DNA of 64,000 bases from Paraspadella gotoi (lineage: Eukaryota > Animalia > Chaetognatha), in the NCBI GenBank assembly GCA_051294375.1, contig CM119267.1:22631486-22695485 (forward strand). Reading direction: 5' to 3'. Below the pieces are notes generated by a model. That model made no database searches, was not told where the DNA came from, and saw only the letters and a program-made list of their open reading frames with translations. Numbering within the stretch: the stretch's first letter is position 1; every line of letters starts with the position of its first letter. Shown here piece after piece: positions 3,801 to 44,976 of the stretch. Both the position numbers and the translations under genes were made by a program.

Positions 3801-6800
3801 CCCATTTAGTGTGCCCAATGGGTATGGGATATTTTTCCGTCAGTTGCCTTGCTTTCCAGAACTTTGGTTCCGGCGATAGGATTAACCGGCCCGTCATTCT
3901 TTTTGCAAGAAGCCGTGACCATTGGGTTCGGAGATGAAGTTTAAGCCCAGTGCGTTATTACGGCGCTGATAGAAGGAACAGTCGTATCCTGAAAATACAG
4001 ATCTGCTCAAAAAAAAGTTTAAACTTTGAACCCCCTACTATCTTGCTTGTCCGTCGTCCTATTAATTAAAACTTGGGTTCATTTGAAAGCCAAGACAAAG
4101 ATCTTTCATTCGAGCCCATAAGGTTTTTAGGCTAAATATTATAGAAGCTGTGCTAAAATAAAATTATTATAAAATAGTAAATTTTAAAAATATTTTTTTA
4201 AAAACTTATATTAAAGATTCAGATTCTTTTATAAAAAGTTGAATCAAAATATAAAACATGTTATTAAAAATTCTGTTATCTTCAGCATTTAAAGCGGGAA
4301 AAAAAGTGAAAATTTTTGAATTTTTATTCTCTGAAGTAGAAATTTATATATGTTAAAACGTTTTAGTTATTTTTTGCGATCCAAACATAAAAATATCATA
4401 TAACATATTTTATAAAAGTTTTTTAGTTTTTTATAGCAAATCCATATCCATATCTGTTCTAAAAATTTTTTTTAAAAATATCTTTAAATTTAACAATTTT
4501 ATAAGTATATTACTACATAAATAATTAAATTTACTATACTGTTATGCTAAAAATATTTTTAAAAGGATTTAAAATTCATTAATTACATATCCATAGGTAG
4601 CAAAAAAATAATGTTCAATCACTCAATCTTTTCATCACTCCACCCTAATGTCCACAGAGAGCAAGGATGACGACCTAAAAAGTCTCGTAATTCAAGACCG
4701 TAAGGCTTCTGCAAACTAGTTGAGAAAAAAATAGAGAGAAGAAAAAGGAATTGTTACCAGTCATTTAACAATGAATAAGCGGTTTTTCATGGAGGATGGA
4801 GCTCCTGGATTCAAAGTCAAAGCCACTCAAAAATGTCATGAGGAAAACAGGATTGAGGTGCTCGAAGGTTGGCCCAGAAACTCTCCTTACTGCAACATAA
4901 TCCAAAATGTCTGGTCAAGGATAAAAAGGGAAATTTTGCAGTACAATGCCACGATAGTTGATAAAATCAAAAAAATTGTAAAACGCATTTGGCTGGAGCT
5001 GAACCCTTCATATTTGCGCAGCCCCTACGACTTTCTCCCTTGTCGCATGGAAGCGGTGCTGGAAGCAAATAGTGGTTCGACAATGTATTAATTAACTGAG
5101 TTCTAAAAAGTATTGTTTACCTTCAAATAACAAAAAAAAAGCTTTTATCATAACTATTAAACTTTTTTTGGACCAGATCTGTATCACTGTTTAAAAACCA
5201 TGGGCACTCTATTCTGAAAGTGCCCCATTCCTGTTCCCAAATCACTAACTTTAATCGCTAAAGTTCACACTTAGCCCAAGTTGATAGCCTAATCTTTAAA
5301 TTAATCCCTCACTTAATCTGTAACCTTCACCTTTAACCTAACTTTTAACCTAATTCTGTACTTTTTAAGATTTAGGAAAATAAATAAATAAATAAATTTT
5401 AAAATAGACTATTTAGAAATATTATGTCTTTCGATTTTTAAAACTTTTAAGCACTACCGCATTTAGATCATTCAATTCTGGCTCGGGGTCAACCTATCTC
5501 CCACTGATCGTAGCTGACTGTAAGAGAAAACTAGACTCTCGTTTTTAGTCGGATCTGCTTTCAGCAGATCCCGACTCTATAATTCACTTTGTCAGTCCAT
5601 CGGTCCGCCCCCTTAATCTTGTCAGAACATCAAATTATGAAAAATTATGCAAAAAAAATGATATCCGTCTGTCTGTCTGTCTTTCTGTCTGTCTGTCCAT
5701 CCGTCTGTCCCACCTTAGCAAAAAGCTTCAATAACTCGTGATTGGGTGGTTAGATTGGAATGAAATTTTGTGTGTGGGTAGGAAAGTGTGTGATGAAGTT
5801 TCTATGGAATCGTGCGAGTGGAAATGAGTTTAAATGGAAAAAATATAAGTCGCATTTACTAAAATCTTTTTACTTATTTTAACTAATAATTACTCTAATT
5901 AATCATAATTGGATGGATAAATTGAGTTGAAATTTTGTGTATGGGTAGGAAAGTGTGTAACGAAGCTTGATATAAATAGAGTAGAAATGAGTTTAAATGG
6001 AAAAAATATAAGTCGCATTTACTAAAATCTTTTTACTTATTTTAAACCCATAATTACTCGAATTAATCATAATTGAATTAATAGATTGAGATGAAATTTT
6101 GTGTGCGGGTAGGAAAGTGTGTGAAGAAGCTAGATATAAAGTTTTGATGGAATTGTGCCAGTGGAAATGAGTTTAAATGGAAAAAACATATGTCACATTT
6201 ACTTGAATCTTTATTATTTATGATTAATAATAAATGTTTTAATTCATTAATTAATTAATATGAAAAAATGATGCAAGTTGAAAAAATGAATGCAAGTTAA
6301 AAAAAAGATGCAAGTTAAAAAAATGATGCAAGTTAAAAAAATGATGCAAATTGTAAAAATTATGCAAATTAAAAAAATGATGCGAGTTGAAAAAATGATG
6401 CGAGTTGAAAAAATGATGCGAGTTAAAAAATGATGCGAGTTGAAAAAATGATGCGAGTTGAAAAATGATGCGAGTTGAAAAATGATGCGAGTTGAAAAAA
6501 TTATGCGAGTTTAAAAAATTATGGGAGTTAAAAAAATGATGCGAGTTAACAAAAATTTTAAAAAATATTGTGATTTAACATCTGATTAGCTGATTACCGC
6601 TTAATTATTGTAGGCAGATCCGACATTGTTTGCTCAAACTTGTTAATATTACTAACCGTGTGCACCTCACTGAAAAAATTATACTTAAAGATATATTGAA
6701 TGGATACAAAATAACTTCCCATGGGAATCGCGATAATATAACCCAAAACAAATGTTTTTTCCAATATTTAATTAATTCCGGAGGGTCCTTTTATAAAAAA

Positions 6801-9800
6801 AAATAAAATAAATTGAATAAGAAACACGTGCTATATACAAAAACTCACCTTAACAAACTTTCCACTAGGAGAATAAAAAGAAAGATGAGCTATTAGATAG
6901 GTATCACAAGCAATGTACCCATCTAACACAGCGTTAAGACACCACATCCAGGTTTGGTTGATCATTATACCTGATTGCAATGTAGCAAAATATGCAGAGA
7001 GGAAGTAGCCAATGAGACTCAAGGTTAAATAAATATCTATCCCTGGTTTGATAACATAAAAGGTATGCAAAAGAAATATTTTTTCTATCCATTTCCACCC
7101 TTTCGTCGAGGCACCATGAAATCCAGGCTTCAAGGTTTGCGTCCTTCTCACAATGCGATTTACTTTCCCTTTAAAAGCCTTGTGTGGCAACCTTGAGGCT
7201 TGAACCTCCTCGAGAGCATATTCGATGGCTGGAGCGATCCTTACAAAGGATTTTTGCCAACAGCTTAGAATTCTAGAATTTTCAGAAATAATTTTTTCCA
7301 ATCGATTGTGGTTGATGACCTTGGCTTCGACATTTGTCAAGCTAATGACAGTTGAGAGTTGAAGCACTTCACAGAGGGGCAATCTGGGAACTTGGCCTCC
7401 GGCATTAATAAACTCTGTCACGCCTGTAACGTCCACGACAGCACATTGTCCACGAATGATTTTGTAGACGCAACTCGTATAAGAGTCCGCACAAGATAAG
7501 AAAACTCCTGGTGGGAAATGAAGCGTCCTTGCTCCATAGGAAGCCCGACTTATCAGGATCTCCATTTCCAGCATTCCCATGGTCCAGTAAGAAAGGTCGA
7601 AACGCTCAGGAACTACGGACATCTTTTTGATCGCCTTGGGTGTTTTCTCCAAAAGTCGGGCTTCTTCGGGGAGATAGACACAGTTTGTCGTTACCTTAAT
7701 GTGTATCACGTAGTCGTACAGGACCTTCTTCAAAAGAGGTGAGACGTGATAAAAGTTAAGTGTCTTGATCATGGAATCGATTTGACTTGTAAGGCGGATA
7801 AATGAATGGGAATTTCGCGCAGTGTCCGCTGAGAGTCGTCCAGACAAGGTACAGGTCAAAAGAATGGCGAACTGATTGTAAAATTTTAATATAATTGTGG
7901 CTTACCTATTTATATTATTTCTTGCTATATTCAAAATTAATGAAACAAATTTGTGCAAAATAGAACAGAAATACTCTTAATCTTTCATTTTTTCAATTAA
8001 TCAATAGACAATTACAGTCCAGTGCAAAAAAGAGGACACTCTTCAAACTTAAGTTGCGCTCGTTTTACGAATACATTATAAAAAATTATGAATGATAAAT
8101 ATAGATTTTAAAATAGGAAATCCATATGTGAAAGTTTAAAGAAAATCGGTGCAGTCATTCAAGAGCTTTAGCTTCCGAAAGATAAGTGGTCAAAAACGTT
8201 CATCATTTTAGTGACTACAAAAAATCATATTTGAAGATCTGCCAAAAACCGAAAATACTTTTTAGCCTTAATTTATCGGCAAAATAAATAAATAAATAAA
8301 AAAATAATTTAGAGATGAAACGAAAAATTCGTTGTAATAGCAATTTTTAACACTAAGAGTCGAAACATGTACATTAATAAAAATAAAAAAATTGCTATTA
8401 CAACGAATTTTTCGTTTCATCTCTAAACTATTTTAAATAGCAAAAAAGAAAGTCAAAATACAATAAATAAATAAATAAATAAATAAATACTTTTGAAAGA
8501 GGAATCCATATGTGTAACTTAAAAGAAAATTGGTCCAGTCATTTCAGAGCAACAGCTACCACAATAGGTTAAAAATACCTTAATTTTCTTCTGCTCTGAT
8601 ATTCTGTTTGAGTACCTAGTAGTTTTAACCTAGTAGTTATTTTGAAAAAAATTTCTGCTTCGTAACGGATAGCCACGAATTAACCAAATTTACACCAATA
8701 GTTCCTTTTTCCATGAATATTATTCAGTTATAATATCTTTCATTTTAAAAGAATCTAACTTTTCATAATTTTTTTGGTGTCCTCTTTTTTTTTTTGCACA
8801 CGTAGAATTATAGACAAATGTATTTGAAATTACATTGGCTGATAAAAAAAATAGTCACATCACTATTATTATTATTTTTATAAAAATAAAGATTTATCAA
8901 AATTGATTGAAGGAAACAAACAAAGCTAAAAAAAGTTAATTTGTTGTACCTGGATCCCTATTAAACTCACATAATGAATACCATCGTCAATAATTTCAAA
9001 AGTTCGTTTACATAGACCTATTGTAAGCATACTGTCTATCATTTTGAAAAACTGAAATATATAAAATTCATAGTTGAATAGCGAAAGATATTCTTTGCAA
9101 AGTCGACGATTGCTATTAGTCATAGCCAGAGCAGTAGTCATATAATCCACATAGCTACAAAGATAATGATAATTTAAATAATTTATAAACTTAATGATGT
9201 AACAACAATCAAGAAAAGTTGTAAAACAAAGAAGTATCCAGCATTCATTATCAGCCGCGGTGGCTCCAGTATCCACGCGACTAAAAATATAAGTCAAGCT
9301 TCCGAGGTGAGAAAAAGAAACGATAAAGATAAAGAAAGAAAAGCTTAGTAGAACAAGTTCATGGTAGGACAGGTAACTGGGAAAAAAAGAAGCAATCTGG
9401 AAGCGATACGAAAAGACTTGATGAAATTCGTAATTCTTTTACTGTATATTATTTTTATAACATTTATTAGTTTGAAAACTACTTGACGTTTATGTCGACC
9501 TAAAAAATGTTAATAAAAATTTATTAAAAAAATGTTATAAAAATAGAAGTTTTTAGAGATACAAAGTCAGTTTGGTGGTTTGTTATAATAAAAAAATTAT
9601 TATGTAAAACCTAACTTATTTACAATGGTAACTATTATTTATCAACAATAATTTTTTTTCCCCAAGCTGACATTTTTATTTTTAATAGATTATAAATGGA
9701 AAACGTGATGATTATTATTAGGAGTAGCCGCACTCAATGGGGTGATTCAAAAATTTATCATGAGTAGATGCTCAAACAAAAATTATACAATTTTAAGTAT

Positions 9801-12800
9801 ACTTTCAACGGACTATATTTTTTTATATGGCTCTATATCCTAGTAATTAATTTTTTAATATTTATTTATAAATAGGAAAGGCCAATTTTTGTTTTTTTAC
9901 AGGTGGGTTAAGCGCCCCGTCCCTCTTAACTGCTAAGCGACCACGGGGCTGGAACCCCGGACCTGGCGGAGGCTTAATTCTTTCTCTCTTGAGTCACCCA
10001 GCAAGTCAGAATTTTATTGTTGTAAAAGTAGCGTCGGGAAAAATGACCCTAATCCTTACCCGGCATTCCTGGAGATCAATGCCCTCTGGAGGCCTATGGG
10101 TAAACGAAGAGCAAGGTTTTTTCTTAAAGAATTAACGGAATAAAGAAGAACGAAATGGAACGGAGAGGATAACGTTTCGGGGAAAAAAATAAAGGAATTC
10201 AGATATCATAATTTTTTCTTTAATATTTTTATTTTTTACAATAAATATGGTTAAGAATAAATTAAGAATAAGTGTAAGTTAACTAGAAAAATAAGTTAAG
10301 GTAAAAATAAGTTAGGGGTAAGTTAGGGTTAGGGGTAAGTTAGGGTTAGGGGTAAGTTAGGGTTAGGGGTAAGTTAAGGGTAGAGGTAAGTTAGGGGTAG
10401 AGGTAAGTTTGGGTTAGGGGTAAGTTAGGGGTAAATTAGAGTTAAATTTAAAATTAAGTTTCGGCTTAAGCATAGGCCGGAACAGGTTGAAAACTAGAAG
10501 TTCTCTCAAATAAATAATGGTAAAGTGACTGTTAGAGAATATGAAAATAAAAATAATTTGAAAAAATTATTTCATTAATAAGCGCACGGAAGCCTTTAAG
10601 AAAAAGGGTCATTCAATTCAACTTCAAAATAGGCCAAAATGGAGTACAAATTCAGAAGGCTGAGCTCCTGCCATTCCGAAAATGTATTCACTTTAAACAT
10701 TTGATGCATTCTACGCCATTTTATATCGGTTTTAATTATAATATAAAATAAAAGAAACCTATCTGAAGAGTTGCAGGTCAAACGAAAAAGCCAATCCATC
10801 TGATATTTTTTATGAATTTTTTATTAGTGAATTCGAAAAATGTAATAGAGAGACATTTTTAAATTTCAACTTGTATCATTGAAAATGAAACATTTTTAAA
10901 CTTTAACCCTGAATTCTTCATAACTGGAACGCGTTTATCAAAATGTCTCTCTATTACATTTTTATAAATGTTTTTTAAGATTGCTAATCAAATTTTTAAA
11001 TCAATATTATTGCAGTCGTTTAGGCTGCAACTCTTCAATTCAGTATAGATTCACTGTAGTCAAAATTTCTTTACCATCATTTAACTGAAGATTTGTGTTC
11101 ATGACTGGAAAACCAACAGAGTAACAAGATTAATTGTTTAATTCCCCCTTCTAAATTATCCCTTACCGTGTTTTAACTTCTTACTTAGAATTTTTTAACA
11201 ATCAGATTGAAAAACTAATCTTTAAAAAATGTGCTACCCATTTAACTTAACAATTTTGTTATTTACCGATTTAAAAAAATGATTGAAAACAGAATGTTTA
11301 CATATAAATAAAAACTTCTTTTTTTTGTGATTACTGATGACTATAATGTATTTCTCGATGTATTAGCTCTAATACATCAAAGATTACGCATTGTTATGCT
11401 GAATGACCTTTCCTCTTAAAGATTATTTTATTACTATATAAAGTTAAAAATTTTTTTTGAATTTTTCAATTTTTTTTGATAGATTCTGATAGAGCTTTAA
11501 AAGTTAGATAAAGGTTATTAATACAAATTTTTAAAATTTTTTTGTTTTATTGATTGTATTTTTTCTCTCTTTTCGTTGTCTAAGTGAATATTAGGAATTG
11601 TTTATTGTTTGCCAATACAACAATTTTTATTGTCATAGAACATGTTTCGACTCTGTTGATTCGAGTCTCATCAGAGTCGAAACATGTTCTATGACAATAA
11701 AAATCGTTGTATTGGGCAAACAATAAACAATTCCTAATATGTTTTATTGATAAAAATTTTAAAAAACCATAAAATTCAGCAATGATGATGATGATGATGA
11801 TTTTTTAACGTTTTTTTTGTTTTTAAAAACGCAATTTCTTGTCAAAATTTAAAAAAAATGTAGTACTAAATTTCATTTAACTTTTCAAGCTCTATAGGAA
11901 TCCGTTCTTANNNNNNNNNNNNNNNNNNNNNNNNNNNNNNNNNNNNNNNNNNNNNNNNNNNNNNNNNNNNNNNNNNNNNNNNNNNNNNNNNNNNNNNNNN
12001 NNNNNNNNNNNNNNNNNNNNNNNNNNNNNNNNNNNNNNNNNNNNNNNNNNNNNNNNNNNNNNNNNNNNNNNNNNNNNNNNNNNNNNNNNNNNNNNNNNNN
12101 NNNNNNNNNNNNNNNNNNNNNNNNNNTAATTTAACTTTTCAAAAAATAATATTTAAATATTAATAACTTTATAAAAAATATAATGATAATATATATAAAG
12201 TAGCAGAGTTTTTATGATTACAATGATCATTTAATAATTCGGAGAGAGAGAGAAAGATATCAAGGTTAAAATTGCCTATCTCTCTATCTCTCAAAGTTAG
12301 TATCCAAATACTTATTAAAACTGTTAAAACTGGCTGATGAAGGTTCAAAAAACAATAACCAAAACATATCCGAATTATTAAATGATCGTGGTTATCACAA
12401 ATAAAAACTTTTATTTTGTAAATATCTATCAAAGGCAATGAAAAAAAGAAATATTATAATTACTAATATTTAAAAAACATTTTTTAAAAAATTAAAAAGA
12501 AATCCTTAGCTCGTGAAGCTTAAAAACATCTTTTAATATCATTGTTGTTATGGTCTTAAATTTTCTTTTCTGTAAAGAAACGAACTGAAGAGACAGTAAT
12601 TATTGATAAGTGTTAATGACAGAACCGTTCAATATAAGCAGTCCCTGAGCTTCGGATCAGGCCTGTAACACCATATTACAGGCGGGTTAAGCGCCCCGTC
12701 CCTCTTAACTGCCAGACGACCACCAGGCTAGAACCCGGACCTTTGGGTTGGGAGGCGAATGTCTTGCCTCCGGCACCAATGTCGCTGATGAACGGTTGGT

Positions 12801-15800
12801 GGATTTTAGTCCACCATACATCCCCCCTCCCGTAGGGAGAAGTCTGTTGCATCTCTTCAGTGAATTGTTGTTGTTGGTGGAAAGTTCGTCACCAAGTTGA
12901 CATGTCGCCTGATGTGTTGTGGGCGGAAAGTGCATCGCCAGGTTGAGCATGTCGCCTGAAAGTGTTGTTGTTGCTGTTGTGTTCGGAAGTCGGGCCTCAC
13001 CAATGAAGAGACAGTAATTATTGATAAGTGTTAATGACAGAACTGTTCAAATATAAGCAGTCCTGAGCTTCGGACCAGGCTGTAACACCATGTTACAGGC
13101 GGGTTAAGCGCCCGGTCCCTCTTAACTGCCAGACGACCACCGGGCTAGAACCCCGGACCTTTGGGTTTGGGAGGCGAATGTCTTGCCTCCGGCACCAATG
13201 GCCGCTGATGAACGGTTGGTGGATTTTAGTCCACCATAGAACTTTATTTTTCCTTCTTTCTCTTCGTTTTCCCAAAGCCCTTCCAGAGCGTATTCAACTC
13301 CGGGATCGCCCCCTTACCCTAATCTCAACCCTAATCCCTAACCCTAACCGTAAGCCCAACCCTAATCTCTAATATCTATCCTCTAAACTAACCTTATCCC
13401 TAACCGAACCCCTAAACAATTAATCCATCGTTCAAATTATCGTCGTCGTATTTGTCGATCCTGACTCTAAGTCATCCAGCCAGAGAGAGCGAGAGAGATT
13501 CGCTGCTCCGTCATACGGCAAGGGGGCATCCATGTTTGATAAGACCGACTTGCCTTCTGCACCAGTACCCTCAGAAGAAAACATTTTTGAAAAAAAAAAT
13601 TTAATCCCATAATCTATGATTATGATACATTATTTTAAGGCTGTATACATTAACATTTAAATTTTATCGGCTCTGGCAATTATTATTAAGTATTATTCAT
13701 ATTATAAAAAAAATTTGAAAAATATAAAAATAAAATTTTATTCTGGTTTGTGATACATTTACTACAGTATTTCCTTAAATGGTATCTTATTAATCATAAA
13801 AATGAAGCAATACAAAAATTCAATTGTTTTAATAGGAACTGACAGATTGATAGTATGATCCAATTTCAAAGTAAAATTTTATAAGTAAAAAATGCTTCTT
13901 CCGAAATTTACCCTCTGTGTAAAATGTTACGAATTGGTGGGGAAAAAAGTCAAATATTTTTTTATTAGTTTGAAAAATATTATAACCCGATTACAAGTAT
14001 ATTACAAGTTTTTTCGTATAAGTCTAGATTGAAGTCCCTGTTAACACAACTCACTTCTCTTCTACTCCGCGTCCAATGACTTCCCCTCTCAGCTCCACAG
14101 CTGTGGAAAGAGTGGAGAGATTCTCTTTGAAGTTAGCTCTCCATCCTGGAAAGGCGTCGGCACAGACAGTATCATTGAATAGGCGATTAGAGGCAGCAGC
14201 AATGGTGGAGCAGAGAGAATCTGAGCTTCTCCATACCATTGCCGCTATTCCGAAGCCTGTCCGAGCACTGTAGTGAGCCGCGGTAAAAATTACCATCAAG
14301 TACCCGATGACCATAATGAAGCTCTGAATATAGTGGTGGAGCCGGAGGGGTAGTAATTATAGTGAGAGCATGTATTAATTCTGTAGTAAAGATGAATAAG
14401 TTTTATTGTTTCACTTGTAATCTCCATGACAAGAAATTTTGGACGTAAAACACAAGGCGTAGGAACTTGAAGGCTGGCTTGAATATTGTAATAAATCGTA
14501 TGATAGTAACATAACCGCCCTAAGTGAATAATATGGTTATTGGTTAGAACTATCTTAATTATGATTAATAACTAAGCAAATCAGTAAAACACTAAATAAA
14601 TTATAAATGGGATAACAGAGAATTCTTTGTTAAATTGAATATCAATATCTATCAATCAATATTTAATATGCAATCAATCAAAAAACATAAACTAGCAAAC
14701 TGGAAAAGAATAAAGTTTGGCAACCGAGGGAAATCTATTTGACTGGCCCAAGGAGTTTGAGTGGTCATCTACTGTCACAGACCTGTTATGTATATTGCAA
14801 AATTACTTGTTTCACTATCTATAGTTTTTAGGTGGTAATTGGTAATATTCTTATTTTTACATTAATGCTTTATGAAATTGGTACAAGCCATATAAAAATT
14901 ATCCATTCAGCTATCTTGCTCCTGACTTTGAACAGGCTTTGGTGGTTTAAGGCATCCATCACTCTTACAAGATAATGACATAGCAGGCTCCTGCAAGCTT
15001 TCAATCAAGACTCTCTCACTCTCTCGTTTATTCACTCCCAAGGTACCTGGTAAAGAGACAGTAATTATTGTTATGTGTTAGTGATAGAACCTTTCAATAT
15101 AAGCAGTCCCTGAGCTTCGGATCAGGCTGTAACACCGATTTACAGGCGGGTTAAGCGCCCCGTCCCTCTTAACTGCCAGGCGACCACCGGGCTAAAACCC
15201 CGGACCTTTGGGTTGGGAGGCGAATGACTTGCCTCCGGCACCAATGGCCGCTGATGAACGGTTGGTGGATTTTAGTCCACCATACATCCCCCCTCCCATA
15301 GGGATAAGTCTGTTGCGTCTCTTCAGTGAATTGTTGTTGTTGGTGGAAAGTTCATCACCAAGTTGAGGCATGTCGCCTGATGTGTTGTGTGCAGAAAGTG
15401 CATCGCCAGGTTGAGGCATGTCGCCTGAAAGTGTTGTTGTTGCTGTTGTGTTCGGAAGTCAGGCTCACCAATAAAGAGACAGTAATTATTGTTAAGTGTT
15501 AATGACGAAACCGTTCAATATAAGCAGTCCCTGAGCTTCGGATCAGGCTGTAATACCGAGTTACAGGCGGGTTAAGCGCCCCGTCCCTCTTAACTGCCAG
15601 GCGACCACCGGGCTCGAACCCGGACCAATGGCCGCTGATGAACGGTTGGTGGATTTTAGTCCACCATACTGGCATCCCTATCAATGAAATGGTATAAAGT
15701 TTCAAAGAATGTTTCAATTATGTTATTTTTTGAATATTGGGAACCCAGACTAAAAAAAGCTCTCACTACGCAACTAAACTATGTATCAAACCTGCTCCAT

Positions 15801-18800
15801 CATCAACTTATAGCGGCAAGCTTTTCGCCCTGTCACTACTCCGTAAGGAGTGTGAATTCCCAGGCTGATCCAAATTAAAAAATCGGCAGTGAAAACCATC
15901 ACGAGAGGAATCCCAAAGACTTCGTCGGCAAGTATAGGGAGCCAAGATTTCTCCTGTCTCATCGGGATGACTTCAACGATAATTTCGAACCAGTTCAGTG
16001 GGTGGTAGTTGAAGAGAAAAACGGGAAAACCAATCAAAGCCAAAACAGAGAGCGTTATATTGAGTTGGTGAACCTCTGATGGAATCAAAAAAGAGATGAC
16101 CTTACATTAGTGAAAAATATTATTTTCTCAGTCTATTCTTAACTCTTCTATTGGAACATCTTTGTCAAAATATTTTATCTTGTTTAGTTAGTTGGTTTTT
16201 GTAAAAGTATTTAATCCTAAAAGTTATAAGACTAAATTGGGAAACCTTTTCGGTCCGTGTGCCACATGTTCTGATCACAACTACAGGTCTTTTTTTTTCC
16301 CTTTTCAGGTATTTCCAGTTGAAGGTAATCTACAGGGAAAGTTTGACTTGGCCCTTTCTCGAATTTCTTGAGCGCGAGAAGGAGTTGTGGCGAGGTTGTG
16401 GGCAGATTCTCGTTGTGGAAAAAGCAAGTGGAAGTGTGGACGATTGCGTGGTGATTAGACAAGATAATCTGTATTTATAAGAAAAAAACAAAACATGCAA
16501 TAACTAAAACTCTTAAACTCTATTCAAAAGTAGTCGTTTTATATTTTAAAAATTAAAATTCATTAATTCATACACTACTCTGCAAAGTTTAATTTCAAAC
16601 AACCCTAACACAAAATAAGCCGCATTTTATTTGTGATCACGTGACTGTAGTTTTTTGTGGTCACGTGATTACACAAGTGCACAACACATGCACAAGAATC
16701 ATTTAGTAATGTCTTACTAGTCTGCCAAGTATTAACTATTGAATATCTAAAATATCTTTTTTATGACATGCACTGTATCGAAATTTCATCTTTTATTCTT
16801 TATAGTAGTAGGATTTCCTGAAGGCGGCGCTAACAGTCTCTTAGATTTGAGGTTTTTCCTGTCTTATGAGGTTTTTCCTGAGTTATGAGCATCTTTAATG
16901 GACCGACGGACAGACATACCAACCGACCGACCAAAAAAGTGACTCAGAGTTGGTTTGCAAGTACTTGTGGCGTAACTAAAAACCTTCAATTTTTTTATAA
17001 TAAACCTTTTGATTCTTTTTTGAAAGTTTTTGGGCAATTTTCCGAAATTTCTCGTGCGACAGAACCCAAATCTCACAATCAGTGATAGCAACAAACAGGA
17101 TAGGACTTTGGAGATCATAAACGACTGTGATCTCACCTAACAGCGAAAACAGTTTAATCATATAGATCGAAGATGATACAGAAGCTGAATAGAAAAAGTA
17201 TGTATTTTGCATAGAACGTACCAAAAACGTCATTTTCCCCCAGTATCACCATTGAAGAGTTTTGCCCATCAAGACCAATAGCCGCTACATATCCTCTACG
17301 AATCATCATCAACCCTTAAAAATTAAAATTTTTGTTCTTTTTTCCGAGAGTGCCCCGTTTCTGTTCGTTTATCCCAGAATTTAATTTGAACTTCTATATT
17401 TATCCTTAACCCAAATCTCTAACCCTAATCTAATTCTGATCACTAACCCCTTATCCCTAATTTTTAACTCTATCCAGTAACCAAGTCCCTAACCTTAATC
17501 ACTAACCCTAACCTTTTTCCTAATCTTTAACTAAAACAAGTTTGAGCAAACAATGTCGGATCTGCCCACGATCATTAGCGGTAATTAATTAATTAATATA
17601 AATTAAAATAATAATTTAATCAATAAATTAAGTAATTTGATCCAAAATTTTTTTTTTAGGTCTTTTCGTTACTGACCACGACAAAAGCAACGACGACGAT
17701 GATGGCGACGACGACTATAATGCCGATAAAGATTGACTTGATTAATTGATTAAGTATTTTATTTATAAATAAATTGATTGATTGAATAATTAATTAATAG
17801 ATAACTAAATGAATTGATTGATTGAATAATTAATTATTTGATTAATTGAACGATTAATTAATTATTTATTAATTAATTGATTAATTAACTGATTAATTAT
17901 TTGATTAATTAATACATCTTGCATTTACATTTAATATAAAAAGAAAAAGAAGCTTAATCAATTAGTGAAACAGGTTTTTTTGTTTTTTTCATTTAAACTC
18001 ATTTCCACTCAGACGATTTTATCGAAACTTTATTTCTAGCTTAAACACACACTTTCCTACTCACAAAAATTCAAGTAAATCACCCCATCCACTTATGAGT
18101 AATTGGCGTTCAAATAGTGAAATAGATTTTTTTGTTTTTTCCATTTAAACTCATTTCCACTTGTACGATTCCATTGAAACTTAATATCTAATCTAATATC
18201 ATACACTTTCCTACCCACACACAAAATTTTATTCCAATTCATCATGATTAATTGGAGTTTAATGCTAAAGGGGGACGGACAGACAGACGGACGGAAGGAC
18301 ATCATTTTTTTTGCATTATTTTTCAAAATTCGAGTTTCTAATATTATAAAAATGATTTACCGACAAGATTTTGGGGTTGAACCGATGGACCGACAAAGTG
18401 AATTATAGAGTTCGAATCTGCTGATAAGTAGATGCGACTAAAAATTCCGAATGTTAAAAAGTTCAATACAAAATCTTTGGATTTAAGAAAAATCTTACCA
18501 GCCAAATTTGTGTTAGGCCTGGCTATGGGGTAGCCTTTTGTGTACAGTTCAGAGTGGCAAATTTTTGCAATGATCTTCAAAACCTTTGAATCGACGTCGC
18601 GAAAAATACGAAGTTGAGACAGAGTCTTCATACTTGTTTCTTCTATAATTAGATCCTTGAAATTAAAGTGAAGAGACAACAATTAAAAATGTTGAAAACG
18701 AATTCACGTATTAATATTTACCATGTAAGGATTCGGTAATCGTTTAAACATATCTTTATCCAATAAATCAAGATGCCAGAAATACTTCAAACTACAAAAT

Positions 18801-21800
18801 TTTTTAATGAGACTTGCTCTCTCTTCATCAACGTTTTTTAACTGTAAAAATAATCGATATCATCATAACTTTAGATGTTACATCATTTTTAACATCATTC
18901 TTCCTCTTACTCTTCTCTACTATCTAGGAAAAAAGTATATCACATAATTATTATTATAATAATTATTCAATAAAATATATAAAATAAAGGTAAAACATTA
19001 TCAATTTTTGGTATGCTTTCCCTCAGCATCAATTACTGACTACATTTATGAGGTGCAATGCCTTTAGCATTACCTATTTAAAAAAAATAACTAACTTTAT
19101 TTGAAATAAAAATAAATAACTAAATACAAAAAATGGTGAAAAACTAAACTCTGGGAGTTACTGAAAAAAAATTCAATGTAAATTCGGAAACATTCTGTTT
19201 TTTTTTAAATCAAACAAGTTTTTTAGTAGATATCCACGACAAAAAATGTGTTATACTTTTTTCCTAGATAGTAATAATTGCAATTTCTTTAAACGCCATC
19301 ACAAGGATGATATATAAGATGATTTATATTTCTGGTTTAATTGATCGATGTTAAACTTGACCTATCCCGGTCTGTCTCTTTCTCTCTCTTTCTGTCTTTC
19401 TCTGTTGCTGCTGATGATAGAATTCTATGATGTGAATCTTAATATGAAAATTTATCTCATACTAATAATCTAATTTTCATTCTTTCAATTCTGTATTTCA
19501 ACATTCAACTTTGGTATCTATGTAACATATCATCTTGATTAAAAAATGTTAAAGATGACTCCTTATTTTTTTTTGCTGTAAAAACATCAGCATATGATGG
19601 TCAGAAAAGATATTTTCTTTCAATGCACTAAGAGATAATGATAAACCTGGCAATATGTATTGACTATTTCCATTTGTCGGCTGAACTCCGCGAGTGGATG
19701 ATGCTTTGTCAAGTAATATGTGCTATAAATCGCAGCAATGTGTAGAGTATAACCAAAAGTGCCCAGCAGCATTGTGAGATTCAGGATCCATAACTCAAGG
19801 TAGTTCCTGTGATTAAATTCTCCATTAATTTGGGAAGTTAATGAGCACCCCATGTTAATTAGCAAATGAAATCGACAAATCTCCAATGTTGAAGTGGCAT
19901 ATTGGGTTTGGTATTAAAGCAATAGCCGTTTTCAAGCTTATATCTAAGTGGTAGTGATGTAACCTCAGATTTTGAATGACTGACTGCCTGGTTAGCCAAA
20001 AAATCTAAGAAATTCCAATCCTAGCCTTGAGGCCTTAAACCACCAAAGCCTGTTCAAAGTCAGGGGCAAGATAGCTTATTTATTAAATGAATGGATAATT
20101 TTTATATTGGTTGTAACAATTTCATAAAATTCAGCTCTTTGTATTTTGATGCTGGCGGAGTACAATATAGTATTCCCCAATCTAATACTTAAGGAGGTGG
20201 TCTTTTAATACAATTGAAACATTCTTTGAAATATTATACCACTTCATTGATAGGGAAGCCAGGTACTCTGGGAGTGAATAAACGAGACTGTTAGAGAGTC
20301 TTGATTGAAAGCTTGCAGGGACCTGCTATGGCATTTTCTTGTAAGAGTGATGGAGGCCTTAAACCACCAAAGCCTGTCCAAAGTCAGGGGCAAGATAGCT
20401 TATTTATTAAATGAATGGAGATTTTTTCTATCGGTTGTACCAATTTCATACAATGCATTATATTAAATACATTTTATCTACAGAAATCTGAACCCACTGA
20501 TTCTTCCCTGGGTAAGACTTCATCTGAGCCAATTTGTCTAGTCGCAATAAAGACGAAGTGTTGGGAGAGCATTGGCATCAGCGAAATTGAGGTTCGGCAG
20601 AAAGAAGCGAAACGTAAACTCGGGAGGGGAAACGCCCCAGTCCCCGGTCGTGGAGAAGTAGAAGAATTGATTGTGTTGAAAACGATCGGTACCACTGGAA
20701 GATTTTTGCTTTGATTGGGGGATAAAAATAAAGAGGAAAGTTAGGTTAAGACCTAAGACCTTTCATATTTAGTGTCTTGTAAGATTTGACAAGGGTTAGT
20801 GATATAGATATGAATTTTTGTATTCCAGTTTGTTATTTTTATTTCACGCTTTTTTTACTGGCAAAACAACGTTATTAGCTAGGTGACTCACACCAGGTGA
20901 ATGAACCACGTTCGCTTAAGACACTCCCCAAGATTGAGGCGAATCAGAGAGCATTTATCATTGACGCAGTCAATCACACGAAACTTCTCATCCGGCAACT
21001 TGAAGTAGCTTAAACACATGAGGAAAAAAGAAAGAATATTTGTAAGTTATAAATTATTTAATTCCTGACGTTCAGATCAGGCTGCACTGGCTGCAGCATT
21101 ACGCTATTGGAAGATTAATGGGCCCATCCCACTTATTTATGAGGCGGCTCTGCCTTTGGAACGCAGCAATGACAGGAGGCAAACATATTGAGTCTGAGAC
21201 CATTGCCGGCTGCGATCGGTTTTATGTCATTACAACATCTTTCAATACTTGTTTCCACAATAAATAAACGGGAGGGCCAGCCAGAAGGAGGCGTAGGCCT
21301 GCTCGAGAATGAATCCCCAGATCATAATGACAACAACGTTGAAGTGCTTCCCGAGGTACAACTTTAGGAAGACGGCATCACGAACAATGAAAAAGGCACG
21401 GAAAACCCCTTTGACAGTTGGAAAAAGAGGAGGGTTCAAGATTAACTCATATAATCAAACATCAAGATACTGTTTGATATAGTATTGTGCTCAATGTAAA
21501 AGCTAATATCAAGTTCAACTTGTTCACCTATGTAGTTAAAGAAATAACAAATTAAGTCCCCAATCCACTGTCCAAACAACGCATGAAGAATAGGCAAAAG
21601 AACTTGGTAGGGAAATGCAAGAAGTAGTGGCTTCCTATTAAATGACAGTTAGAGTTAAGAAACAAAGAAATAAATAGTAAAAGAATTTAGAATATCAATA
21701 AAACATAGGACAAATTTGTACAAAATCAAACATGTATATGTAATTTTTGTAATGTATTTATCACTTTTAACCACTATTTTAGAATGTAAGAAAGCTTATT

Positions 21801-22300
21801 TAAAAATTTAATTTTTTAAGCTGCCTATATCACCACCCACATTACTCACCACATGTTCCTCGTGACATCGGGAAGAACTCTTGTGCGATCGATTATTAAT
21901 TCCTCGTTTTCATAATATCCAACAAAGCAACTGAGCATCACCCGAATTACCATAGTCAGCTGTAATTTTATTGAATTTTATTGTGACCTTTCACTGAAGC
22001 GCATAGTCTCCGAATTTATTTGTCTGGTTTATCGACTTACCTGAAACCAAACCCCAATTGGCACACCCGGAATAATTTGTAATGTAATGCTACGTAAATT
22101 TTCTGGCCGCCTGTTGCCATCCCAAGTAACTTCCCAGGATGGTTGAGGTTCGTAGATGCTGAACAATGGGATTTGGGCTCAGAAATTCACAAAAATTTAA
22201 AAATAAAACTCTTGATACAAAACCTGAATTTTCTTTCGGTTTCCGTGAGAGGATTAAAGTACGGCGGTCCCTCTGGCAAGTTTTCCCATTGAACTTCAAA
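900..22300 (-). CDS. Multi-exon gene for a four-repeat (6TM + cyclic-nucleotide-binding domain) channel-like protein, CNGK-like; continues past the window's left edge; boundaries approximate
   Basis: Manually spliced exons repeat the CNG/HCN pattern. S2 ends: LSCFVGYYENEELIIDR (21850-21959), ISLGIHTPYGVV (~15790-16090), HLSFYSPSGKFVK|DP (6849), VRIHSG (~940). S3: LAFPYQVL (~21600), SRFPWEVI (~6720). Three CNBDs: 18499-18655 + ~17220-17315 + ~17005-17137 (GLMMIRRGYV..GENDVFGEITVV), 7250-7600, and 2260-2500 + ~1900-2110 (PGSWFGT..WRGT). GT-AG sites flank most exons. Confidence 0.8.
3998..5181 (+). mobile_element. Internally deleted Tc1/mariner DNA transposon with transposase remnant (4771-5091)
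   Basis: TA-flanked ~25-bp TIRs: cagatctgctcaaaaaaaagtttaa and ttaaactttttttggaccagatctg. ORF has FMEDGAPG...WPRNSPYCNIIQNVW, a degenerate Tc1 FQQDNAP..WPxxSPDLNPIENxW (catalytic E replaced by Q); N-terminal half missing. Confidence 0.88.
5542..6644 (+). mobile_element. DINE-1/HINE-like non-autonomous Helentron-type element, copy A
   Basis: Subterminal IR gtcggatctgc (5548) / gcagatccgac (6614), short 5' inverted repeat, GTCY microsatellite (~5665-5710), internal tandem repeats, small 3' hairpin gtttg-ct-caaac, T-rich insertion site; homologous to 17535-18444. Confidence 0.75.
6262..6548. repeat. ~18-19-bp minisatellite (aaaaaatgatgcRagttR)n inside the HINE, preceded by ~3 copies of a ~120-180-bp unit (5740-6210)
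   Basis: About 15 directly visible tandem units with variable A-run length. Confidence 0.9.
6849..7859 (-). CDS. Large exon of the CNGK-like gene: C-linker, CNBD2, and S1-S2 of repeat 3
   Basis: 342-aa ORF with C-linker (LLKKVLYDYVIH), CNBD beta-roll (HFPPGVFL..VYKIIRGQCAVV), then hydrophobic S1-S2; GTGAGT donor at 6848. Confidence 0.8.
8015..8800. mobile_element. Putative MITE with imperfect TIRs
   Basis: gtgcaaaaaagaggacac (~8022) versus gtgtcctc(t)ngcac (~8777-8799); internal direct repeat ggaatccatatgtg..aagaaaatYggt.cagtcatt at ~8116 and ~8500. Confidence 0.5.
8308..8427. repeat. 41-bp inverted repeat enclosing a hammerhead 3' half (GAGTCGAAACATGTA) and AATAAA; Penelope-like pLTR remnant
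   Basis: tttagagatgaaacgaaaaattcgttgtaatagcaattttt and its reverse complement; same gagtcgaaacatgt motif as 11588-11740. Confidence 0.55.
9897..9964 (-). mobile_element. Truncated fragment of the twister/tRNA LTR
   Basis: ttacaggtgggttaagcgccccgtccctcttaactgct..gcgaccacggggctggaaccccggacct aligns to the LTR core of 12586-13238. Confidence 0.85.
10305..10445. repeat. Telomere-like G-rich minisatellite (aagttagggttaggggt)n
   Basis: Tandem ~16-17-bp units containing TTAGGG; similar degenerate TAACCC/GGGTTA tracts at ~5245-5355, 13315-13415, 17400-17530, 28555-28600 and 44570-44890. Confidence 0.85.
11588..11740 (-). repeat. Near-perfect 68-bp palindrome with a minimal hammerhead core (Penelope-like inverted pLTR)
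   Basis: Arms 11588-11655 and 11672-11740, 16-nt spacer. Minus strand reads CUGAUGA-GACUC-gaaucaaca-GAGUC-GAAA-CAUGUU, followed by AAUAAA. Confidence 0.65.
12637..12713 (-). ncRNA. Predicted type-P5 twister ribozyme, copy A 3' LTR
   Basis: GGCAGUU(P5)-AA-GAGG(P2')-GACGGG-GCGCU-U^AA-CCC(P2)-GC(T2)-CUGUAA..UUACAG(P3)-CCUGA-UCCGAAGC-UCAGG(P4/L4)-GACUGCU(P5'); predicted cut between 12689 and 12688. Confidence 0.78.
13056..13130 (-). ncRNA. Predicted type-P5 twister ribozyme, copy A 5' LTR
   Basis: Same fold; P4 A-U replaced by G.U; one T1 mismatch (GACCG); predicted cut between 13106 and 13105. Confidence 0.7.
13133..13205 (-). promoter_or_regulatory. tRNA(Gly)-derived cassette (putative internal Pol III promoter) in the LTR; also ~12716-12785, 15180-15251 and a deleted copy at ~15601-15635
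   Basis: 72-73 nt; acceptor stem GCGGCCA/TGGTCGY; A-box-like TGGTGCCGGAGG; T-arm CCGGG..CCCGG with B-box-like GGTTCGAGCC/GGTTCTAGCC; ATTCGCCTCCCA resembles the tRNA-Gly(CCC) anticodon region but that stem is broken. Confidence 0.75.
15102..15177 (-). ncRNA. Predicted type-P5 twister ribozyme, copy B 3' LTR
   Basis: All core elements intact; differences confined to the P3 apex; predicted cut between 15153 and 15152. Confidence 0.8.
15523..15598 (-). ncRNA. Predicted type-P5 twister ribozyme, copy B 5' LTR
   Basis: All core elements intact; predicted cut between 15574 and 15573. Confidence 0.8.
17535..18444 (-). mobile_element. DINE-1/HINE-like element, copy B (inverted relative to copy A)
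   Basis: Begins aacaagtttgagcaaacaatgtcggatctgcc (reverse complement of copy A end); shares core gacaaagtgaattatagagt and catttaaactcatttccact units; different central filler (attg/atta repeats). Confidence 0.75.
20210..20460. repeat. Dispersed repeat, inverted paralogue of 14863-15050 + 15673-15720; partial local duplicate at ~20030-20130
   Basis: Its reverse complement aligns continuously across the insertion point of retroelement copy B. Confidence 0.88.
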
Positions 22301-38649: not shown

Positions 38650-41600
38650 TTACTTTTTTCTCTTCATCGAATCAACTCGTTTGACGCTTGGCTGCTGAAA
38701 GCTTCTTTGCCGAGGGATGCCCTTTTGCTGGTCTCCGTTCTTTGGTTGTAAGAAACTATTTTGAAGTTCAACGTTTTTCACTTGAGACTGTTGATCGACG
38801 TTTCGCTGCTGAATTCCCGTTTGCTTTTCGACGTTAATTGACTGTTGATTCCTTTTCTTTTCTTCCTCCATCGTTTCCTCCGTCTCCGCTGCAGAAATGT
38901 CGTCGCTGCTGGCGGCGGCGATTTTCACTGATTTCAGGTCGTCGAAGTTAATTATCAGAACCGTGATGTTGTCGATGGCGCCTTTAGAAATAAAAATTAA
39001 TTGCTTAGTTTACTTTCTTCTAATCCCGCTCCCCTTAAATCTCAATCGACATCCTGACCTTGCTTGTAAACGTGGCGAACCAAGCTCCTCGCCCCGAATT
39101 GAGGCTCGTCTAGTCGCTGCTTGATAAAGTCGACTGCGTCTTGGTTGGAGATGCAGTCCCAAAGCCCGTCGGTCGCCATGATCATGAATCTGGTTGGTAG
39201 ACGATTATTAACTCGTTTTAAAATTGTTATCCATTTCAAAGTATTTGGTGACAAAGCATAACTTTCATGCATAAGGTTTAATTTTATATCATTAACTCTC
39301 TTTACTTTGGATTGAGTTCCCCCAATGCGAAGCTCCTGACGTCGGGATCAGCGACGATGAGATTCTTTTGTTTGAGATTTAAATCTCCGAGCGCCCGCGA
39401 GGTGGCGAGGACGCCGCCCACTCGCCAGACTCCGTGAAAAGATATAAAACCGCCGGCGGCTTTGATTCGCTTTCGTTCGGACAACTGTGGATCAAATTGG
39501 GACGATGTTAAGATTTAATGTCCATTCAACTCCTCGCACCCGCTTTGTGGACCTGCTGCGGTTTGTGATCGACTGTGAGGGCGATGGCTTCGCCGCTTCC
39601 GTCACAGACGACGCTTCTCGAGTCGCCGACGTTCGCGACGTGGAGCGTCTCGCCTCGAATCAGCGAGACCAAACAGGTGGTGCCGCCTGTAGGGCCGGCG
39701 GTGATCTTGGCGATAGAGAGAAGTTGTTCGTCCAGGCTGAAGATTGGGGAATAGGGAGAGAGGAGGGTACCACTCCATAACGAGGCTCTGGTTTTCAACG
39801 ACTTTATCGTCCCGATCTAATCGTCACCTCAGGATGGAGTCCCTCAAGATGAGGCCGAAGTCAGCGTCGGCGCCGCTGAGGGCCGATTTGAGAATCCGCA
39901 CCATGATGGACTTGAATAGAGTTTTCTCCACGAAGTCGGCGGCGAACTGTTGGTATGATTTGGGATAAAAAGTCTACTTTAAAGAAAATCAAGGTCGCAT
40001 ATCGATTCTATATTATTGTTTTAGTTTTTTACGTTGTACATAAACGTATATTGATTAAGTTCTAAATTTATTTACGTATTAAATTCAGCTCTATCTATAG
40101 TATAAATATTTTTTTGATAATAAAATAATCCCAATGTTATTTTACGTACTAATGTTTCTTCGAATAATAAAAGTATTATCCCTTTGCCTCGGCTGTACTG
40201 CACTGAAAATATAGATGGTCTTTTGTTTATAAAGTGAGCCTCACTTCCAAGGCTCATTTACATAGAATCAGTTTTGTGTTTTGACTGGAGTAGAAACGTT
40301 AAAATTTTAATTAATAAATAATACTTTTAATTGTAAATAATCCTAATTATTATAATTACCCTTATTATACACTTTAGTATTATAGAATTTATTAGTTTCT
40401 GGAATAAAATTTTCTCTATTTCACCTTGAAATACTTCAATTCGTTTAAATAATCATAGGAGGTCCTCACGCTACCAAATTGGAAAAAAGTATGAGGAGAA
40501 AATTTTTGCGCCCCTTCGGCATACTTACCTGGCTCAGGGGATACCTTGATCAGCAAGGAGGTTCCCCCAGGGCGAGGCCCTTCCATTGCACTACGGTTGG
40601 GCTGACCCTTGCGATTTCCCCAAATGTGGGAAACTCGGGAGCATAATTTGTGATAGTGGGGTCTGCGTTCGCGCTAACCCCTTATAATTGGCAGTTCTCT
40701 CTAAATATAGTTTGCTTTCATATGCACTTGGGTTAAACATTTTGATTTTTACCTCTCCACCGTGCCCGTCGAAAATCCCACACAGCGTCGTGCCCGTGTG
40801 TTCGTTCTCCAACAAAATAGAAAATCGATCCTCCATCTTGGGACGACGTCCCTGAGGAAATGGGAGATGGTGGTGAGAGAGAAAGGAAAATATCAGGGAC
40901 TAAAAATAGAAGAGATGAAGAAAGGAGAAATAGAAATTGGACGAAACTCGAACCAAAAAAGGAAGACACAAATTAGCAAATATGTGAGATGAGATCAGTG
41001 ACGATGAGAGCGGAAGTGAAGTGAAGACGAAGACAGAAGTCTTCGAAGTACTGTGCTATTTAATCATGAATAAATTATTATTTCTACTAAGTATGCAAAG
41101 ACCGAATAAATTCTCAGCTATCATTTAAGTCATTAACAGTGAAAAGATCCCGGACCGACCTGCAATGCGTAGACGGCGACGCTTCCTTTTCTCATGCTCC
41201 ACGATCTACCGTCGTCTTCTACATCAGCGACTAATAAAAAAATAAATAAATAAATAAATTATCACAGATTCTACGAAGAAATTAGCAAAAATTTTTTGTT
41301 AACTCGCGGGCGACAATTTAAGCTTTTGTCGTGAAATTTTGAAATAAATTAATTTCCCCCTTTGTTTATGACTGCGAAATATACATGAAAAATAAAAAGC
41401 TTGCTGTACTTGCTGTGCCTGTTTCCCGGTCATTTTAAAAATTGATTTCTGTTTAAATTTATTGTAACCAAAAAATCTACAGGGTGATTAACAAGAAGAA
41501 TAAGATCGGCGCACCCGTGTTTGATTTAGAGGCAACTTCATCATCCACGTTACTCTTCTTTCCGCCGACGAAAATGTTGAAGACGGCACCGACGAAGCGT

Positions 41601-44772: not shown

Positions 44773-44976
44773 AATTTTACTTTCGCCGACCGGGGTTAGG
44801 GGGGGTTTAGGGTTAAGTGTAATTTAAGGGTAGTTTAGGGTTAGGGGTAGTTAGGGTTAAAAGGTTTGAGGGTTAGGGTAATTAGGTAATAATTTTTGTA
44901 AAATTTTTGTTTAAAAATGAATATTTTTAAGTAGTTTTTAAAAGACGCCAAAACCCTGGTCGGCGAAAGTAAAATT
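44773..44976. mobile_element. MITE with 24-bp TIRs nested in a larger GGGTTA-rich repeat (~44490-45040)
   Basis: aattttactttcgccgaccggggt / accctggtcggcgaaagtaaaatt (1 mismatch). Confidence 0.75.

Follow-up and report, generated by a model that had tools for sequence, protein, structure and literature searches.

The analysed stretch of DNA (the window) comprises 64,000 nucleotides of the chaetognath Paraspadella gotoi (GenBank assembly GCA_051294375.1, contig CM119267.1, positions 22,631,486 to 22,695,485 of the forward strand) and contains small non-coding retrotransposons with two long terminal repeats (LTRs), here termed family A, whose LTRs carry a motif of the twister ribozyme class. Element E1 (15051-15668, 618 bp, LTR pair 94.9% identical) is read on the minus strand, as are all family A features described below. 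Its 5' LTR (15472..15668, 197 bp) has lost the A box to deletions and includes a twister copy at 15523-15598 with a predicted cut after 15574. The internal non-coding region (15285..15471, 187 bp) starts with a site resembling a primer-binding site (PBS) from 15471 (T-TGGTGAG...) and contains a polypurine tract (PPT) at 15297-15287, which is followed by the 3' LTR (15051..15284, 234 bp) with the sense termini TA...(C/T)A. At the sense start of the LTR, just inside the TA terminus, there is a perfect hairpin (GGUGGA-CUAAAA-UCCACC, within 15263-15284). E1 is flanked by the 4-bp target-site duplication (TSD) CCAG (15047..15050 and 15669-15672), and an intact copy of the repeat interrupted by the element has CCAG only once, at 20259-20262. 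A second element, E2 (12586..13238, 653 bp, LTR pair 97.4% identical, TSD GTTC of 4 bp), shares this anatomy, with LTRs of about 234 bp and a 187-bp interior, and has twisters at 13055-13130, where the T1 contact is broken, and at 12637-12713. At 9896..9964, a fragment of the LTR retains the tRNA T-arm together with the twister's 5' half. Both insertions have the PPT before the 3' LTR as well as a 4-bp TSD, and in E1 and E2 the PBS-like site starts with TGG 1 nt past the 5' LTR.

The type-P5 twister motif in the 3' LTR of E1 is located at 15102..15177 and is predicted to be cut between U15153 and A15152. Along the minus strand it is composed of the first P5 strand (GGCAGU, 15177-15172), an AA (15170-15169), the 3' strand of P2 (GAGG, 15168-15165), GACGG (15164-15160), a self-complementary 6-nt connector GGCGCU (15154..15159) in the position of the P1 hairpin and a candidate for a P1 shared by two copies, the cleavage site U^AA (15153-15151), the 5' strand of P2 (CCC, 15150-15148), the GC of T2 (15147-15146), P3 (15145-15127), P4 (CCUGA/UCAGG) enclosing L4 UCCGAAGC (15121-15114) and the second P5 strand (ACUGCU, 15107-15102). 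All core elements of a twister are present in type-P5 order between 15177 and 15102, including the conserved catalytic residues (U^AA and the G-A before T1) and the L4 core; P2 and P4 are formed, the termini lie in P5, and P2 has 3 bp with a bulge or mismatch. The window matched a twister descriptor five times, and 100 shuffles yielded no match at all; the type-P5 identity proposed in a preliminary description of this DNA is supported, and BLAST located four full copies besides the fragment at 9896-9964.

A closed P1 hairpin, as is typical of type-P5 twisters, was not found in family A, where the 6-nt connector takes its place, and the Rfam gathering score for this type was not reached. Scans with the Rfam models at the gathering score, at E<=10 over 8000-22000 and with the LTR alone gave no match to the family A twister. 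Since all three scans remained negative, the motif is missed by standard models, as the preliminary description had foreseen. It had also excluded a sequencing error, correctly so, because 4,922 contig records of the public sequencing run X1 lie on the 89-base stretch in question. Its notion of a compensated T1, in which both strands are changed together, gains support from T1 pairs that covary across lineages. A P1 reduced to a connector was confirmed as well; the connector is best read as GGCGCU with 6 nt instead of the 5-nt GCGCU given before, since its outer bases covary (G.U, A-U, C-G). P2 has indeed 3 bp, and the bulged A described for it is indistinguishable from an A.C mismatch, which fits equally, because two of the three P2 pairs never vary.

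The swapped T1 pair, the bulged P2 and the tiny P1 are each tolerated in known twisters and so are not novel on their own. Imperfections of P1 and P2 are well tolerated, natural P1 imperfections do not lower cleavage (McKinley et al., PMC11662667), and P1 is dispensable, its deletion leaving a near wild-type rate (review, PMC5408937). As these oddities are known to be tolerated, twister activity is plausible and the oddities alone are unsurprising; from its sequence the 15102 motif is very probably an active twister in some form. A reading of the plus strand as a ribozyme of the hepatitis delta virus type, judged by eye, was rejected, as the wobble changes favor the minus strand, the element itself runs in the minus direction, and the stretch resembling J4/2 corresponds to the tRNA T arm in reverse. 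No hammerhead match was obtained in the Rfam scans of the window and the LTR.

Directly upstream of the twister the LTR contains a tRNA-Gly-like pseudo-tRNA (15179..15251; A box 15243-15232, B box 15199-15190). ARAGORN reported a pseudo-tRNA-Gly in all three intact LTRs given, only at a threshold lowered to 80%, at which 37 calls were made in the window; the Rfam scan of the LTR gave no match to the tRNA-like head. The B box reads GGTTC; as A box, TGGTG is present where most Helenus elements have TRGCY. The head likely serves as an RNA polymerase III (Pol III) promoter. Contigs of three public sequencing runs from three studies (X1, X5 and X7, of which X5 may be RNA) leave the element at 15053 (116, 31 and 63 contigs, respectively) and at 15284 (130, 22 and 75) into unrelated flanks, which indicates many insertions with fixed ends. 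A non-LTR tandem retrozyme and a Penelope pseudo-LTR were considered for family A and rejected by the PBS-like site, the PPT, the fixed ends and the 4-bp TSDs. The host of the twister is a tRNA-headed, non-coding terminal-repeat retrotransposon in miniature (TRIM) of the Helenus type, an assignment about which we have hardly any doubt. This tRNA-headed two-LTR retrotransposon had been overlooked in the preliminary description and is the larger finding. Helenus TRIMs, including TRIMp3, are likewise non-coding elements of less than 1 kb with two LTRs containing tRNA-like sequence and a PPT, and they have a PBS where family A has a PBS-like site; animal Helenus share the 4-bp TSD, the internal part of Helenus also starts with T-TGG, and TA...CA termini occur in Helenus-3_TheEle (PMC10886601). 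In contrast to family A, no ribozyme is described for Helenus in the accessible text of that paper, in which the word 'twister' occurs 0 times. A search of the Helenus consensus file with exact L4 strings, from which matches can be hidden by line breaks, found no LTR twister, and the ends of the family A element have no sequence match among the Helenus consensus sequences available (PMC10886601).

Comparison of the four full copies enabled an assessment of how far the twister is maintained. Relative to the 15102 copy, differences are confined to the P3 apex and a base inserted where P3 meets P4, except in the 13055 copy, where P4 has a wobble pair, G to C at the equivalent of 15161 leaves T1 uncompensated, and 1 nt is deleted after P4. 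The T1 pseudoknot is consequently broken in one of the four. The preliminary description had cited this copy for its pair-preserving P4 change and did not mention the T1 change and the deletion. The exchange of G.U for A-U in P5 had been ascribed to the fragment at 9897, which lacks the 3' half, so that P5 pairing is not visible there; in the sequencing runs the exchange is common, with C>T at 15177 in 55%, 71% and 50% of the depth in X1, X5 and X7. Within 15127-15150, the span of the X1 variant listing, variants above 5% occur only in the P3 apex (region of 15136-15139). The variant tables are unphased; at 15127 and 15145, the partners of the first P3 pair, about 1.2% of the X1 depth each varies towards a U-A pair. 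The twister might be an inactive passenger, captured with a short interspersed nuclear element or an older repeat and without a part in transposition. Against this, catalytic and pseudoknot positions are all intact and compensated in three of the four copies, and within 15127-15150 the variants above 5% are confined to the P3 apex. That published Helenus need no ribozyme (PMC10886601), that family A misfolds in free folding and that one copy in four has a broken T1 speak for such a passenger, which we regard as improbable.

The predicted cut sites in the two LTRs bound units of 421 nt in E1 and 417 nt in E2. The sense strand of E2 contains no T4 run, and Pol III read-through across the element is proposed for this reason. 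The predicted unit-length circles fold with z scores of -2.25 and -1.91 (40 shuffles) and are 54-60% paired. By analogy, a double cut and a circular intermediate appear rather probable. The lack of T4 would also suit a twister acting mainly as a 3'-end processor in place of a Pol III terminator; RNAs cut only in the 3' LTR would then retain the tRNA head, which would act as their R region, and would be reverse-transcribed as linear molecules. The twister follows the tRNA head directly, just where most of the fungal Helenus LTRs shown have a T run (by eye). With the same ribozyme in both LTRs, selective cutting would however require an extra mechanism, and the cyprinid Helenus LTRs shown have neither a T run nor a twister; we consider this role unlikely, if slightly less so than that of a passenger.

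Twisters with a short connector are not restricted to family A. An unrelated repeat of the window, family B, carries a twister built like that of family A at 20335..20397 on the plus strand (Twister-P5 25.8 bits, gathering 37.6) with a T1 U-A pair, AC/GU in T2 and the connector AGGCCU. Copies of the family B repeat extend over 20029-20460 (plus strand; a partial copy starts at 20029 and the tandem period is 324 bp) and over 14863-15050 and 15669-15725 (minus strand), E1 being inserted in the latter copy, which includes a decayed twister (14912..14974, minus strand) with the connector AUGCCU and an L4 starting with UUC. The repeat is older and AT-rich. With the search pattern derived from families A and B, a metagenome scan yielded 42 matches, two of which are paired in T1, T2, P4 and P5. 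One of them (L247, 1-1097) is a 974-nt unit with a 123-nt terminal repeat, as expected for a circular RNA or a tandem, and has a palindromic-connector twister and no long open reading frame (ORF); its folding is not rod-like (z -1.23). The other (L265, 1-1203) has a twister with a CGCG connector about 330 nt after a reverse transcriptase ORF that gave a weak RVT_1 match and one unnamed homolog of 824 amino acids (P0001). Judged by its motifs, we take this ORF to be Penelope-like, and L265 is possibly a Penelope-like element with a twister in the hammerhead's place. Both sequences fit a multi-copy setting. Among prokaryote genomes, none of three pattern matches was structured as a twister. The scans of viral collections contained one real twister among the matches listed, a phage type-P5 twister (L065, 303-352) with a 3-nt P2 strand, a normal P1 hairpin and 54.7 bits, above the Rfam gathering score; a short P2 alone is therefore ordinary.

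It is the connector in which these lineages agree. GGCGCU (A, with G.U ends), AGGCCU (B), CAAUUG and CGCG are self-complementary in four of four independent lineages (families A and B, L247 and L265), which also pair in P2, P4 and P5. Among 36 unstructured matches whose connector has 4 or 6 nt, none shows such a palindrome (Fisher p 1.1e-5) and six have a complementary central pair, compared with 4/4 lineages (p 0.002). In alignment A2 (six distinct rows, L265 excluded, the 9897 fragment misaligned) each of the three connector pairs has substitutions in both partners, and the covariation score was reached by 0/500 shuffles. Tertiary pairs covary over the four lineages too, namely C-G, U-A and G-C in T1 and G-C and A-U in T2. 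The innermost connector pair sterically cannot form within one strand. When two copies were folded as a strand-swapped dimer with a shared P1, the energy was lower than that of two twister-shaped monomers by 11.7 (A), 13.1 (B), 6.8 (L247) and 8.7 kcal/mol (L265), and free cofolding paired the connectors with probabilities of 0.99 (B), 0.75 (L247) and 0.99 (L265).

The same element and circle role could be served by twisters which fold and cut alone as natural mini-twisters, with the connector forming a hairpin of 1-2 bp or a loop. Such a P1-less mini-twister had been suggested in the preliminary description and is possible: the published tolerance of P1 deletion and of natural P1 imperfections cited above is in its favor, and the family A connectors are unpaired in free folding. 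It leaves unexplained why connectors of four unrelated lineages are self-complementary at every position and why the innermost pair is of the Watson-Crick type in 4/4 lineages as opposed to 6/36 controls. Moreover, a P1 of 1 bp was predicted to be less stable than an open loop in all three 6-nt connectors. We consider the lone mini-twister a less likely option, though the most serious of the alternatives discussed here. For cleavage helped by a P1 shared between two copies, which the connector covariation suggests, the chances appear even.

Several observations weigh against the shared P1 and the mechanism built on it. Free cofolding of the family A motifs gave a connector-pair probability of 0.0, and in the full family A transcripts it was at most 0.001. 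Neither twister fold arises in these transcripts upon free folding, both being some 19-33 kcal/mol less favorable than the free ensemble, and the dimer gain in full transcripts is 7.3 kcal/mol in E1 but 1.3 in E2, both comparisons leaving pseudoknots unscored and the latter relying on ensemble energies. As P1 is dispensable in twisters, a monomer could cut. The palindrome is broken in one of two full family B copies, and a looser filter (T1+T2+P4) adds two short-connector matches (L152 and L305) that are non-palindromic and have no P2 pairing. The search pattern was derived from families A and B themselves, the palindrome idea is post hoc, and four lineages are few. In X1, a seemingly uncompensated T1 change, C>T at 15118, accounts for 12% of the depth. 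No element of the window is intact in promoter and ribozymes together, no helper Gypsy was seen in the window by eye, and expression, cleavage and circles are predictions from sequence.

Under the proposed mechanism, transcription by Pol III would begin from the tRNA-like head in the 5' LTR and read through the element. Each twister's 5' half would pair with the other copy's 3' half, the two GGCGCU connectors forming one 6-bp P1 common to both active sites, an arrangement that can be drawn as a fully nested secondary structure. Cleavage at both U^A sites would release an RNA of 417-421 nt with its two ends in one ribozyme core, since the core that joins the 3' half of copy 1 to the 5' half of copy 2 in the swapped fold would lie wholly inside the released unit. 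A host ligase would close the RNA, and the circle would hold one partnerless twister, expected to re-cleave poorly. With a core holding both unit ends and a partnerless twister in the circle, ligation and stability would be favored. A Gypsy-type helper might then prime at the PBS and the PPT, rebuild both LTRs from the circle and integrate the product with a 4-bp duplication. That the twisters in both LTRs cut the transcript twice, that the unit of about 420 nt is circularized and reverse-transcribed and that connector pairing probably favors the cut is, taken as a whole, a reading to which we give even odds. A wider view falls slightly short of that: minimal twisters cleaving as strand-swapped pairs via a palindromic P1 may be widespread in eukaryotic retroelements and circular RNAs, and family A may represent the first animal Pol III twister LTR retrozyme, cutting two-LTR transcripts only and leaving the circle uncut.

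The type-P5 twister of Rfam (RF02684) and the twisters described here have the order and identity of AA, GANGG, U^AA, T2, P4/L4 and an open P5 in common. They differ in the 3-nt 5' strand of P2 (GAGN in RF02684), an extra P3 and a palindrome of 4-6 nt in place of the P1 hairpin; family A has no Rfam match, and family B and L247 score 24-26 bits, below the gathering score. Plant LTR retrozymes (PMC4918200) likewise have a ribozyme per LTR, a non-coding interior, a PBS (in family A a PBS-like site), a PPT, a 4-bp TSD and a predicted unit-length RNA between the cuts; family A is distinguished by a twister instead of a type III hammerhead, a tRNA-like Pol III head, a unit of 420 nt versus 600-1000 and an animal host. 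Metazoan retrozymes are described as having no LTR, PBS and PPT in the accessible parts of PMC7761336 and PMC7229834. In these terms, the element is a TRIM of the Helenus type whose construction follows that of plant LTR retrozymes, but with a twister and in an animal.

In Penelope elements and in amphibian retrozymes, the hammerheads possess a short stem III that is palindromic, and cleavage takes place in the dimeric form (PMC6765202, PMC7229834). These dimeric minimal hammerheads resemble the present twisters in a stem too short to form, a palindromic cap and their occurrence in tandem or two-copy elements; they belong to another ribozyme class, and dimer cleavage has been shown for them, whereas it is inferred for the twisters. 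The Schistosoma Perere-3 twister T-variants (PMC8501958) also represent weak-P1 twisters serving a retrotransposon; there, the twister sits at the 5' end of an element of the non-LTR kind, and its P1 is open and partly supplied by the target site, in contrast to the connector-closed P1 inside an LTR described here. Twisters have been placed in a non-LTR element, in circular RNAs and in RNA viruses (PMC8501958, PMC8216279, PMC5680766, PMC13725137). In the open literature searched we found neither a twister in an LTR element nor a dimeric twister; Roth 2014, Lunse 2016 and the CHiTA supplement may hold short-P1 type-P5 examples.

Further features of the window comprise a metazoan-like U1 small nuclear RNA gene (40521-40683, plus strand, 157.9 bits) and an open frame with a weak match to a cyclic-nucleotide-binding domain, probably an exon (6831-7901, minus strand). 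Tandem repeats of 17 bp with TTAGGG are located at 10283-10463 and 44784-44879. Long inverted repeats, possibly similar to miniature inverted-repeat transposable elements, occur at 11588-11740, 8301-8434 and 5542-6188 with 17981-18444.

The element would unite tRNA-promoter TRIMs, LTR retrozymes and twister ribozymes, which have so far been separate in the literature examined. It would give eukaryotic twisters a concrete job and would explain where the matching ends of a Pol III LTR element come from. If the dimer is true, twisters have arrived convergently at the strategy of double hammerheads, a complete subclass escapes current models, and a ribozyme active only upon the meeting of two copies would be a ready tool for stable RNA circles.
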